Assembly: GCF_036971445.1 (NCBI RefSeq)
Contig: NC_091476.1
Coordinates: 24,738,001 to 24,802,000 of the forward strand
Source: Narcine bancroftii
Lineage: Eukaryota
Reading direction: 5' to 3'
Length of the DNA: 64,000 bases
Under the pieces are notes generated by a model, which had not been told where the DNA came from, searched no databases, and worked only from the letters and a program-made list of their open reading frames with translations. Positions 23,512-43,316 of the stretch are shown piece by piece (the stretch's first letter is position 1; each line of letters begins with the position of its first letter). The position numbers and the translations under genes were made by a program.

Positions 23512-24330
23512 ATGGCTCTGTCGGATCACGCCAGCTCCACCATGGTCGGCGAGCAGTCACCTTTCCCTGAAATAGTGGAGCTGAACGTCGGCGGCCAGGT
23601 GTACATCACCCGCTACTCCACCCTGGTCAGCGTGCCCGACTCCTTACTGGGACAGATGTTCGGGCGCAAAAACGGGCTGGGGCTGGCGAGAGACGGCAAG
23701 GGGCGCTTCTTCATCGACCGCGACGGCTTTCTCTTCCGCTACATTCTGGACTACATGCGGGACCAGCAGCTGGTGCTTCCCGACCACTTCCCCGAGAGGA
23801 GCCGGCTGCAGCGGGAGGCCGAATACTTCGCTCTGCCCGAACTGGTCAAGACTTTGAGCCCCAAACTCAGCAAGCAGAACTCCATCAACGACGATGCCTG
23901 CCCCAGCGACCCCGAGGACGGCTCTCCCAACACGGACGCAGCGCGCAGTCTGGCCGCGGCGGGCGGCGACAGGAGGATGGGCTTCATCACCATCGGCTAC
24001 CGGGGGTCGTACACGCTGGGGAGGGACAGTCAGACAGACGCCAAGTTCCGAAGAGTGGCCAGGATCATGGTGTGCGGCAAGACGGCGCTGGCGAAGGAAG
24101 TGTTTGGGGAGACGCTGAACGAGAGCAGGGACCCAGACCGGCCCCCCGAGCGCTACACGTCTCGCTACTACCTCAAGTTTACTTTCCTGGAGCAGGCGTT
24201 TGACAAATTGGCCGAAGCTGGCTTCCACATGGTGTCGTGCAATTCGACGGGCACTTGCGCCTTCGCTCACGATCAGACCGACGACAAGATATGGACCAGC
24301 TACACCGAATATGTTTTCTACCGTGAGTGA
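23512..24330 (+). CDS. kctd12b: KCTD12b-type BTB/POZ GABA-B auxiliary subunit, exon 1 (T1+H1). Unspliced 272-aa form; spliced form ends this exon at 24322
   Basis: GCGATGG start. T1: [14 protein letters not shown]...[17 protein letters not shown]1: [59 protein letters not shown] at 24181-24195 points to KCTD12b rather than KCTD12 (NFLEQ), 8 or 16. The paralogue call is less certain than the family call. Confidence 0.9.
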
Positions 24331-27300
24331 ACAGCCCATCACTAATCCCTAAGCGATTAGTCCCAAACCCTGCCCCACCACCCTAGAACAGAACCCTTGC
24401 TCCTCCAGCTTTCAAACTTGGTGTACCATTGCTGCCTCACCTGGTCTACCACGCTCTCCGATGCATTTGGATGGATATGTTTTTTTAAAAAAATGTCTTG
24501 TTGTTTTCATTTTAAATGCATCACGTTGTTTATTAAACTAGTGCACTTGGATCTTGACCAAGCCAAAAGTTGGGTTGTGCGTGCGTGTTTTTGGAGGTGG
24601 CGCATCTGGGTGTTGGCACACAGCCCAATGCCTTGAAGCAGCTAAATTAATCGCGTTTGACGTAAAGAATTGAAAGAGAATGAAGTAATTCCAGCGGTGA
24701 GAGTGTCCGAGAAAGTGATGCGGACGCAAACAGTGGGGACACATGAAGTTAATGGATATTTCAGGTGGGAGCAATTGAGGATGGACTGCAAACTGCTTTC
24801 TTTTCAAGAATTACTTAATGGGGAGGTTAATCCGCAATGGCGAGACACTTTCTGTTTACAACGACGGGGTGCCAAATAGTATTTTTTTAAAAAAAGGGTC
24901 TGTCTTTGTTTCGGACAGCGCGGTGCACGAAGTTCGACGAAATGCGGTTTGTATTTTAAAATAAATGTTGGCCAAACAACGCGTAGCCATTAACCACGAT
25001 AAACGAGTTCATAGTGAGATCATTGATGTCAACATTTGGGTAAGTCTGCAAAGGTTTCTGCAAAGACATTTTATGCAGGGGTTTCCAGGAAATGTTTCTT
25101 CTGATTATGTGATATGCCATTAAAAAAAATAAAGCTATTTTGTGATTAGTACAAATGTCAAAAGTCTTGACGGTTTAATTTGTACCTCGTTATTTAATTT
25201 TTTTGATGCGTGACTTTAAACTCTATTTTGGTAGCATATTTGCAAGGTTTAACAAACGGTTGGTGAGCAGTTTGTATGAAAGAGCATTCTGATTCACAAA
25301 TGTTTAATGCCGTGGATGCAGATCTTTCAATAGAACAAATGGGCTACGAGATGAAATAAATTATGAACACTTGCCCCATTGTTCTACTGGCAAGATACTT
25401 GCATGCCACAGTCCTTCAATTTAAACTTAAAAATTTCAATAAACTGGCATCAATATCCCACTTGATACAAAAGAAGTGCATTCACCACCTTCAAGAACGG
25501 TACTAACTGCAACTTAACATAAAGCTTATTTTTAATTCCCTTTGAAGCAGGACTTCATAGACTATCTCGGTGTTAGCTATTTGTCCATTCTTAATTGTGC
25601 AGTACTTTTGTAGTGGCAATTTAAATGAATGATCTTTTCGTGTGGATTGCAGCTTTTGATATGCACAAATGCATAGGTAAAGGAATAGAACACAAGCTTG
25701 AACTCAATAAAGCATGATGAATGGATTTGAGTAGATTCAGGTGCCCTTTTTTTAATTGAACAGAAGGGACCATTTGGGCCAGCACTGACATACCTACTTG
25801 TAAATCCAGTTTTATCCGGCCTTGATAATTGTTTGGAATCGTCTTGTTGAGCATCACTTCAGAGCACTAAAGGGTAAAATGGAAATTAAAAGTTGAAATA
25901 ATTAAAAATAACATTCTTCCAATCTCTATAAATATTTTAAGTCTTGCAGCAACTATTTTCATTATGGAGTTGCGACTTTATTGTTCATGCACATTTAAAT
26001 AAAAGGAGAGCACAGAATGAAGTTATTTGGGTCCATGTGTTAAAGAGAGATAATCTTTAACCGGCTCTGCTGTATTCTAATATCCCTAAACATCCTTGTA
26101 CTTTTATATTGTTGTTTAGAAAAAGTCAATAATGTGAATGTTAAGAATTTCATATTGATTATTTAAGTATAACTTTTTTTATCTTTCAAATAAAGTTTTT
26201 TTTTAATGGAAGTACAAGATGTGCCTCCTTCTTCGGAACTGGTAGGTTCATCAGGCCCTGCACTGGTATACTGCATTAGATACAGCTAAAAAAAATCTTT
26301 ATTTACTGTCAAGCATGTCCTGGTTTTCTCTGATTAGGTTCATTCAACTTTTGGAGTCAGATGGGTGTCACCAATCAACTCAGCAGAGCAGGTAAGCAAA
26401 TTCAGTTGAAACAAAGCTGTCTGTTGTATGTTGATGAACTTGGGGTGTTTATTGTGTTAAATAATTAACATTAAATCTTTCTAGATCCTTATAACAGGAA
26501 CTTGTTTCACTCAAATTTTACCTTTTCCATATGACTTTTAAAAAGTCATTCGTAATGAATATTGAATTACTTGTTGTGGCTTCTTTCCTGTTGACCCAGC
26601 ATGAAAATTGGGAAAAATAAAGCTCATTAAATTGCCTATGTTTATTCTAAATTTAAACTTAAAGCTTGAAATGCTCAGTAGGTCAGGCTGCATTTGTGGA
26701 AACAGAAATTGTTACTACTTTAACAGAACTGGGATATGTTAGAGATAAATAAGATGGAAGAAGAGAAAAATGTTGTGGCTGAAGTCCTCCTAATTCAAAA
26801 TATGGATAACTGGCACTTGTAAGATCTTGTACAATGTAGTACCAACGTATGGATGGAACATCAAAAGTCATATGTCAGCAACCTTTTTGATTTATCTTGA
26901 ATTGTTGGTTCATCTGATTGTTCAACTTGTCAAGAGAAAATTATTGTGTAGGGGAATGAGGAAATAATGAAACCCATTGTGGCTTTGCTGTCATGTCCAT
27001 ATTTCTTCCTCCATCACTAAATGATGTCAACATTAGCTCTTGTTTTTTTTAATTATCATCTGCCTAGGTACTACCATTTCTTGGGGCAGTTATGGTGAGG
27101 GGAAAACCTGTTGACCATTCAGAAGTGGGGACTCTAGATTAAAGCCCTTGTTGCAAGTCATATTTTCTTCCAGTCCGAGCCAATAAACTTGGCTGTTGAA
27201 GAACTGGTCTTGATCAAGATTAGAACTAAAATATATTCTGAACTCTGCATTACAAGGTAACCTAAAGACACATTTGCATGGCTTCATAGCCCTTTTGATG

Positions 27301-41312: not shown

Positions 41313-42855
41313 GTGAGAGATTGAAGTAAAGTCAAACCAATGATATTCTGATACAAAATGAAGAAGTTTGAGCTAGTCTATTGTGCCTTGTTACTTTTGA
41401 ACACATTGCATATTAATATGAGTGGGTGGTGAATGGTTGATGAAGACTTATGGGCCAATGGGCCTATTCATGTGTTGGATCTTCCCTGTAATTCCTCACT
41501 TTGTTCCATAATTCCAATGACAGGTGTAGTATATTTTTGAGATACTGGAATAAATGGCCTAGAGTTCAAAGCTCAGCACAGGAGCTAAAAACTTAAATCT
41601 GGAATTTAAAAAAATGATAACCGTGACCATGAAATAAATAGATTGCTATGAAAATCCATCTGGTTCACTGATGTTCTTGATCTGACCTGAATGTGACTTC
41701 AAAGTTTCTGCCACAGGATTATTAACTCTTACTCATGAACTGATCTGCTAATTTAGTTGTTTCAAAGCTCATTGATTAAAAATAATGAAACTATACAGAC
41801 CTGCTGAAATTTGGAACCATTCGTGATGAAAATACATCAAGCACAATCAGTCCCACAAAGTCCATCTCACTAACATCTGAGAACTTGGCTAGAACTAAGG
41901 AAGGAGCATGGACTTGAGGAGGGAATTTTTTAGCGAATGCTTGAGAGCTTAGGAAGACTTATGGCATCAAGTCAAACAAGGGTACGGAAATCTATTGACT
42001 AGAATCATGGAGCCATACAGCATGGAACAAGCCCTTTGGCCCAACTTGTCTGATGACATACCTTCAATAGGATCCATATGAATCAATACTATTCCATGTC
42101 GGATTCCATTTGGAAGGTACAGCAAAGGTAGCAAGAGAACATAACACTTTTTCAGAAGATAACTTTAATATTTGTTACTAAGTCTGCTTTGAGGTCAAGA
42201 TTTTCTTGAGGTCACTAACCATTCTGCTATAGAAATATAACAATATTCTTTTATCATAATTGAGTCAAATTTCTGTAAGCCTTCACCTAATCACACTATG
42301 GAAGTACCTTCTATTTTCCATCCCTTTTGGCCCCTGAACTAACAGATAAGAATTAATTATACTCCTGTGTCTAGAGCCGTGTTTAGGCCAGACCTGGTAA
42401 GAATGCCAGATTTCCTTCCCAGAAGGATATTAGTGAACCAAATGTGTTTCCCCAACAGCTTGGTAGTTCTCTGGTTATTCCTACTTGTATTTTTAATTTT
42501 TTGAAGAAATAGATTTGCTGCAGTCTGTATGATGAATAAATGCTTGTATTCCTAGCAACATCCAAGCTCTCATGAATGAATAATCTTCTCAAGAGTTTTA
42601 ACAGATATGAAAGAACCTATGCCCCATGAGTCAATAGCAGAGATGAACAGTATGTTTCACTAAATTATTACTAAATAATGTCGGAAAATGAATGCATTTT
42701 AAAAGAATAATTTAAAATAAATATTCTCAAGATTAATTAAAATTTAAAATTAAAAGATAGTCATTTCTACTGAATTTTCTTTGAATTGTTTACCCATTAG
42801 TAATTGACAACTTAGTTGTTACATTTGTTGTATTTGTTTTTGAATTTCACTACAG

Positions 42856-43316
42856 TTGAAGATACCTCACAGTATTTAGACGATGTTGCAGAAGAACAGA
42901 ACGACAAAATCGTTGAAAGCAGTAAGAATACAGAGGATTCAACCAATTGCCCTGATAACGCCACTTTCAGCACAGAGAGCAATTCTAATGTAAACACTGG
43001 GTCGGAAGTCATGAACAAAAGTCTCCAGGAGCACCCACAGCGAGCAACAACTCTGGAACTCAATGATGTGCAAAGGATGTTACATGAAGACAAAATCTTA
43101 CATCACCAGAAAGTGAGCAAACGAACAAACACAAATCAAAGTAGTTTTGACAAAACCACTGATTTGGAGCAAAATAAAAATAATGATGAAAAACAGACAT
43201 TGGAAGCAGAGCTGCAGAAATGCATAGAGGATTTGAAAAAACTGAAAATACCATCCTCATTTTTGAAGAAGCAGAGGCAATGGCAAAATGAATTATTAAA
43301 AAAGTATGATATGTAA
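42856..43316 (+). CDS. kctd12b: Predicted KCTD12b terminal exon encoding linker plus H2-domain core
   Basis: Acceptor tttgtttttgaatttcactacAG, phase 1. Ends LEAELQKCIEDLKKLKIPSSFLKKQRQWQNELLKKYDM*, matching the recalled KCTD16/8 C-terminus ELEKCIQDFxKIxIPDxFPERKxxWQSELLxKYxL*. Confidence 0.88.

Follow-up and report, generated by a model that had tools for sequence, protein, structure and literature searches.

The 64,000-nucleotide (nt) window of the Narcine bancroftii genome analysed here, by which we mean the whole stretch of DNA under study, carries on its forward strand a KCTD12b gene whose first coding exon ends in a splice donor that can also be read as Arg-Glu-stop. By reading through this donor the gene would make a desensitising GABA-B receptor subunit of 272 amino acids (aa), and by splicing at it non-desensitising subunits of 514 or 532 aa that end in an H2 domain. 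On balance we lean towards the whole of this predicted chain, while the production of the two isoforms, kinetics aside, appears quite probable. Judging from the protein models compared below, the combination of a short and an H2-bearing form occurs generally in jawed vertebrates other than placentals, and automated annotations already contain it.

In mammals, according to PMC8121548, the T1 domain of KCTD proteins binds GABA-B2 and the H1 domain binds G-beta, KCTD12 and KCTD12b, being without H2, desensitise by uncoupling G-beta-gamma, and the subunits assemble into mixed pentamers. In KCTD8 and KCTD16, H2 auto-inhibits H1 (PMC6566181). By homology, the window KCTD12b would bind the GABA-B2 tail and G-beta-gamma as a pentamer. 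Should its exon 1 donor be ignored and intron 1 polyadenylated, the protein would stop flush with H1, leaving this domain free to take G-beta-gamma off effector channels as mammalian KCTD12 and KCTD12b do. Use of the donor would extend the protein by about 260 residues, mostly acidic and of low complexity, and by the two-helix H2 core, and the added H2 would inhibit H1 in cis, as in KCTD8 and KCTD16. Splicing versus intronic polyadenylation would set the isoform ratio and hence the kinetics, and because KCTDs form mixed pentamers, this ratio would tune the kinetics gradually.

Gene identity and the donor that doubles as a stop

The features of the gene are collected in Table 1. The CpG observed/expected ratio is 0.97 across 23100-24330, a segment spanning exon 1, and H1 also matches the KCTD12 H1 chain 6m8s_A (E 1.5e-67). 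The T/NFLEQ motif in H1 has a role in GABA-B desensitisation. Both the motif and the absence of H2 belong to desensitising subunits of the mammalian KCTD12/12b type, as does a fast desensitisation of GIRK currents: the motif is present in the window gene, the absence of H2 applies to the 272-aa form only, not to the gene as a whole, and the fast desensitisation is predicted for this form.

Table 1. Coordinates, in the window, of the KCTD12b gene and its parts
Position	Strand	Feature	Basis or remark
23512..24322	+	KCTD12b coding exon 1 (T1/BTB, linker and H1)	811 nt; inside CpG island
23575..23847	+	T1/BTB domain, aa 22-112	PF02214 E 1e-16; KCTD16 T1 structures E ~1e-46
23980..24324	+	H1 domain, aa 157-271	PF23110 E 3e-55, whole profile
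24181..24195	+	TFLEQ motif, aa 224-228	read from sequence
24323..24330	+	GTGAGTGA: phase-1 splice donor, also Arg-Glu-stop (short form, 272 aa)	sequence
24331..26337	+	Rest of intron 1 (intron 2,015 nt), likely 3' untranslated region of the short form	
26338..26391	+	54-nt in-frame exon, likely cassette, 18 codons, donor CAG/GTAAGC	absent from the preliminary description
41040..41312	+	273-nt in-frame exon, duplicating the terminal H2 exon over its 5' half	alignment
42856..43316	+	Terminal H2 exon, coding part to TAA	461 nt; acceptor ...TACAG/
43179..43313	+	Conserved H2 core, last 45 aa	within predicted two-helix end

The window exons reproduce, without a mismatch, a database protein assigned to the electric ray Narcine bancroftii by its source, which confirms the origin of the DNA. 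Four full-length T1-H1 paralogues are found in the genome, the window gene included. The 90% cluster to which the window protein belongs includes sequences listed by NCBI as KCTD12b (Mobula, Hemitrygon and Pristis) and others listed as KCTD8-like or KCTD12-like. In a tree of 29 rows, which is without mouse KCTD12b and does not resolve the KCTD12b rows as one clade, the window gene groups with elasmobranch KCTD12b at weak support (81/72). The other three paralogues group with Tupaia KCTD12 (C16, 95/93), KCTD8 (C8, 98/99) and KCTD16 (C21, 100/100). Cluster membership and the placement of these three paralogues bear out the naming of the gene as KCTD12b in a preliminary description of this DNA. 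The exon coordinates and length arithmetic given there (811, 273 and 461 nt; 514 aa) were all reproduced on the sequence: joining exon 1 to 41040-41312 and 42856-43316 keeps the frame, the terminal exon beginning 18,534 nt past exon 1. The three-exon structure itself has to be revised, as four exons were found. The additional 54-nt exon also keeps the frame and brings the product to 532 aa, 514 aa being the length of the form that skips it.

Exon 1 ends in TTCTACC/GTGAGTGA, where the slash marks the exon border, and read-through gives a 272-aa protein ending in YRE and a stop, which is present in the NCBI/UniRef collection. Positions +1 to +6 of the donor are identical to those of the KCTD8 and KCTD16 donors of the same genome. 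As a measure of chance, the letters that follow complete a stop in 6 of the 35 GT(A/G)AGT hexamers of the window, whereas 17 of the 18 KCTD12b open reading frames (ORFs) derived from Logan end in RE-stop, so that the overlap exceeds what chance would give. An immediate stop is likewise found in 58 of 60 tails that start like a read-through; these rows span sharks to platypus but share kinship and are hence not independent. Among the best 120 of 833 near-length homologues, 119 carry TFLEQ, 58 end in RE-stop, at least 42 carry H2 and 20 have other ends, the H2 counts being lower bounds since our regular expression missed divergent ends (P0327 and P0330, for instance).

The paralogues differ at this position. 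KCTD8 of the same genome reads C/GTGAGTTG and has no stop; KCTD12 reads C/GGGAGTGA, the stop being retained and the donor gone, and no H2 match was found on its contig at E<=10.

An RNA that keeps intron 1 but has its later introns spliced carries a premature stop and is exposed to nonsense-mediated decay; the short RNA must therefore end within intron 1. This AT-rich intron of about 2 kb contains 11 AATAAA/ATTAAA hexamers, a raw count in which none stands out.

The H2 exons and the two forms in other species

The 54-nt exon, which has a strong donor, shares 11-13 of 17 residues with its counterparts in five other elasmobranchs, and the Met that it contains is not conserved, being I, T, K or F in other species. 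It is likely a cassette, because paired models in three shark species differ by exactly its 18 residues (775/757, 606/588 and 606/588). Sturgeon and kiwi models (P0226/P0229, P0227, P0014/P0264) also differ by a cassette of about 19 residues directly after H1; with 3-4 of 17 residues identical to the shark cassette, homology between the two is uncertain.

The exon at 41040 is the product of an internal duplication, its sequence aligning with that of the last exon's 5' half. The two proteins align with a score of 115, the highest of 2000 shuffles reaching 80, and in DNA 283 of 491 columns match, the similarity extending into the upstream intron. The exon is bordered by ...CACAG/ and /GTGAGA and has a counterpart in other elasmobranchs. 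At its acceptor (41038-41041) a second AG stands right behind the first (CAG/AG), where other sharks encode Val; if used, it would shift the frame by two bases. The H2 linker is further expanded in other sharks by repeats of about 34 aa, present as tandem units in catsharks, Mustelus and carpet sharks (P0001, P0003, P0204, P0206, P0214), with totals of up to 775 aa. Linker length is very free, the H2 core fixed.

In this genome, the terminal exon has homologues in the H2 exons of KCTD8 (E 7e-7) and KCTD16 (E 4e-6), which follow the first coding exon of their genes at 177 and 187 kb, respectively. Its core is identical at 40-42 of 45 positions in five other sharks and rays, and at 19-25 of 45 in bony vertebrates and in KCTD8/16. 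In the same five elasmobranchs, identity amounts to 86-89 of 91 residues for T1 and to about half for the linker exons. Because of this core identity, and with constraint judged at the protein level, the H2 exon is under constraint and no relic; together with the homology to the KCTD8 and KCTD16 terminal exons, this upholds the intact H2 C-terminus reported earlier. A single-sequence structure model of the last 80 aa places helices at 31-56 and 61-77, with a mean predicted local distance difference test (pLDDT) score of 70, and PMC8699099 describes human H2 as two isolated helices. In all, the long RNAs add 243-261 residues, the 261 comprising 48 acidic and 29 basic ones.

T1, H1 and H2 are joined in one model in six elasmobranch species (Hemitrygon, S. 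canicula, two Chiloscyllium, Stegostoma and Mustelus). Under isoform labels of a single gene, RefSeq lists long and RE-stop forms in X. laevis (485 and 470 against 302 aa), axolotl (576 against 296), wallaby (481 and 479 against 283) and Antechinus (484 against 282). Across sources, both forms are found in catshark, X. tropicalis and Nothobranchius furzeri; the catshark has long models and a 277-aa RE-stop entry in GenBank, AIZ67978.1, and NP_001096229.1 of X. tropicalis is an RE-stop form. As to the suspicion that H2-bearing forms of non-mammals were partly described already, long forms are common in automated annotations. Marsupial KCTD12b-like proteins (P0031, P0034, P0268-P0274), which have NHLEQ or NYLEQ and a long branch in the tree, keep short and long models.

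These data also bear on the possibility that splicing is constitutive, as in KCTD8 and KCTD16, with RE-stop proteins representing unspliced pre-mRNA or copied mammalian KCTD12 annotation and the stop a by-product of GTGAGT. KCTD16, known as H2-bearing, has a matching donor/stop, and the Logan ORFs may derive from genomic or unspliced sequence, both of which such an explanation would accommodate. It accounts poorly for the retention of the stop in 58 of the 60 read-through-type tails, intron positions +7/+8 being usually free, for a mouse KCTD12b protein without H2, and for the two RE-stop entries NP_001096229.1 and AIZ67978.1, whose accession types by convention usually have a cDNA behind them. 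We consider constitutive splicing very improbable.

Several observations nevertheless weigh against regulated production of two functionally distinct subunits. KCTD16 of the same genome reads C/GTGAGTAG, likewise Arg-Glu-stop over the donor, and the overlap alone is therefore no proof of a used short form; two KCTD16-like proteins (P0323, P0332) end in YRE and another (P0379) reads on. The contrast with KCTD8-type read-through tails, of which only 1 in 9 stops at the RE column, favours a retained stop in KCTD12b, but it comes from a set skewed to long tails by 50% clustering. Support for the two forms comes mostly from automated models, and no elasmobranch among those examined has long and RE-stop forms under isoform labels; the H2-less X3 and X4 models of Chiloscyllium plagiosum end in a different sequence. 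In seven elasmobranchs, Narcine bancroftii included, a short protein stands beside a separate H2-only model, and NCBI models the H2 exons of this ray as a separate gene for a 300-aa 'uncharacterized protein'. All kinetics, moreover, are extrapolated from mammals, and the four marsupial-type motifs are NHLEQ or NYLEQ, none of them T/NFLEQ. The claim of one gene encoding two subunits thus holds in so far as isoforms are annotated in four other vertebrates and H2 is conserved, and fails in so far as it made this locus special: with the KCTD16 overlap in the same genome, not even the donor/stop state is peculiar to it. KCTD16 may itself have a short isoform, so far unrecognised; the protein collection contains neither the KCTD16 nor the KCTD8 read-through form of this genome.

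The split models in seven elasmobranchs, along with five bony-fish records of H2-only proteins 169-217 aa long (P0224, P0246, P0255, P0262, P0290), would also be expected if KCTD12b were in practice a single-exon gene, its downstream exons being separately transcribed as an H2-only protein or rarely joined. However, the first exon of the 300-aa model, at 11211-11325, lies upstream of exon 1, which the model skips, and within a high-copy repeat (863 candidates, of which 40 were scored, with 39 others at 89-91%); as a true start exon it was rejected. The H2-only models begin with N-termini unrelated to one another, and no CpG island lies near the downstream exons (observed/expected 0.16-0.40). 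Nor is the cassette Met conserved, and the exon 1 donor is maintained in the right phase. A single-exon gene is, in our opinion, improbable, and the 300-aa model is likely a mis-split of KCTD12b; we read the H2-only models as annotation splits, while an H2-only transcript may exist.

Accepting that both isoforms are made, the switch might mainly alter scaffolding or localisation, for example with Cav2.3 in habenular terminals or in non-neural tissue, and not desensitisation. Conservation of the H2 core among elasmobranchs, at about 90%, goes beyond the needs of a plain steric block, and marsupial orthologues retain both forms without T/NFLEQ. Effects of KCTD8 and KCTD12b on Cav2.3 and on release that do not depend on GABA-B activation are described for the mouse (PMC8121548). 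On the other hand, H2 is reported to auto-inhibit H1 in KCTD8 and KCTD16 (PMC6566181), and scaffolding and desensitisation roles are compatible with each other. We regard a switch acting mainly on scaffolding or localisation as unlikely, although less so than constitutive splicing or a single-exon gene, and continue to favour a predicted effect on receptor kinetics.

Age of the short end and of H2

The end of H1 was screened in 155 proteins, namely 150 search matches and five named invertebrates, 78 of which had an H1 end and 77 did not. Ten of the 78 were dropped for want of an anchor, and removal of two Podarcis rows reduced the non-vertebrate-type set from 40 to 38. In 22 of these 38 homologues the protein ends at the RE-stop column, and in none does a tail exceed 27 aa. 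It counts against our argument that the non-vertebrate-type rows are mostly unnamed; of the five named ones, three (Daphnia, Trichuris and Trichinella) end at the RE-stop column, and Globodera and Aphelenchoides continue for 15 residues. The final residues of the 22 vary, and just one of the proteins has E or K behind a final Arg, as a GT(A/G)AG donor would give; these ends are therefore not donor read-throughs. TFLEQ is present in the Daphnia protein; the non-vertebrate-type rows show many variants of the motif, and three of these rows have NFLEQ or TFLEQ. A quick tree of H1 puts the KCTD8, 12, 12b and 16 rows in one clade (Shimodaira–Hasegawa-like approximate likelihood ratio test, SH-aLRT, 95), apart from nearly all non-vertebrate-type rows.

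Since 22 of the 38 non-vertebrate-type proteins finish at the stop column and have no H2, the short end is likely ancestral, H2 having been added in vertebrates through a donor that arose inside the last two codons. The view of this locus as an intermediate on the way to H2 loss would then have the wrong polarity, its stop position being common to invertebrate homologues without H2. Seddik 2012 reportedly proposed that KCTD12 and KCTD12b were freed from H2 and gained the motif. A loss of H2 within vertebrates fits the present data as well; the deeper polarity and the origin of the motif may differ from that account. In the evolutionary course that we suggest, KCTD12 would have lost the donor, KCTD8 would mostly have lost the stop, and KCTD12b would have kept both outside placentals.

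More tentatively, and with somewhat less than even confidence, these steps could be drawn into a single history. The RE-stop would be the ancestral animal end, and the gain of H2 through a donor in vertebrates would have made a switch between fast-fading and sustained responses within one gene. Following the genome duplications, the two states would have been divided among paralogues, KCTD12 keeping the short and KCTD8 the long one, and the switch kept under regulation in KCTD12b from sharks to marsupials; KCTD16 may still make a short form.

Other features of the window and relation to known systems

Intron 2 contains, at 33671-38392 on the forward strand and in sense with KCTD12b, a young Ty3/Gypsy-type long terminal repeat (LTR) retrotransposon. 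Its near-identical LTRs of 174 and 176 nt are flanked by a 5-nt target duplication (AGTGT), and a gag zinc knuckle, protease, reverse transcriptase, RNase H and integrase extend across three open stretches. At about 6000-7740 lies a G-rich low-complexity stretch with long open frames (GC 72% over 6001-8000), which gave no Pfam match for the single frame scanned. No neighbour gene, by which the locus might be compared with the X-linked one of the mouse, was identified among 12 window ORFs scanned.

Published statements hold KCTD12b (PMC8121548) or KCTD12 (PMC6566181) to be without H2, and kctd12b marks the habenula (PMC9671474, PMC3711925). No account of an H2-bearing or alternatively spliced KCTD12b was found in the literature searched, subscription papers lying outside its scope; nor did the T/NFLEQ motif turn up in that literature, and passages of PMC4402209, PMC12314290 and PMC11169412 contained no pertinent information. 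Where reviews present KCTD12b as desensitising and without H2, they perhaps describe the condition of the mouse only. If so, a kctd12b probe for exon 1 in fish, amphibians, birds and marsupials would not tell apart two subunits whose predicted effects are opposite, and RNA processing could tune receptor kinetics. The gene would offer a clean and testable case of splice-form subfunctionalisation among duplicates, and may overturn the usual view of H2 as ancestral and later lost.

Like the window gene, mouse KCTD12b and mammalian KCTD12 have T1 and an H1 with T/NFLEQ and end at the same RE-stop, as in the KCTD12 H1 chain 6m8s_A, which ends in FCRE. They are without H2 (PMC8121548), whereas the RE-stop of the window gene still forms a canonical donor with three in-frame exons behind it, leading to H2. 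With KCTD8 and KCTD16 the window gene shares a phase-1 donor at the same codon and a terminal exon homologous along its length. It differs from them in its introns (2.0, 14.6 and 1.5 kb, against 177 and 187 kb here), in its motif (TFLEQ, against TYLEQ and RQLER), and in having a cassette exon and a duplicated half exon. No description of a short isoform of KCTD8 or KCTD16 was found in the literature searched. The automated RefSeq/Ensembl models named KCTD12b isoform X1, X2 or X3 in non-placental vertebrates already list long forms with TFLEQ and H2 as well as short RE-stop forms, and the ESM Atlas has, under the name KCTD12b isoform X1 (443 aa), a cluster with 69 members. Such models carry no functional interpretation and are often misnamed KCTD8/16-like or split in two genes.

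The switch between secreted and membrane immunoglobulin M (IgM) is the textbook case of intronic polyadenylation with a composite terminal exon. Exon 1 of KCTD12b has the in-frame stop behind a usable donor by which such exons are recognised and, as in the IgM-type switch, the donor would be in competition with reading on to a stop and to a poly(A) site in the intron, and the outcome would change the C-terminus. Unlike in that switch, read-through in KCTD12b adds a single residue, and the part spliced on is a predicted inhibitor.

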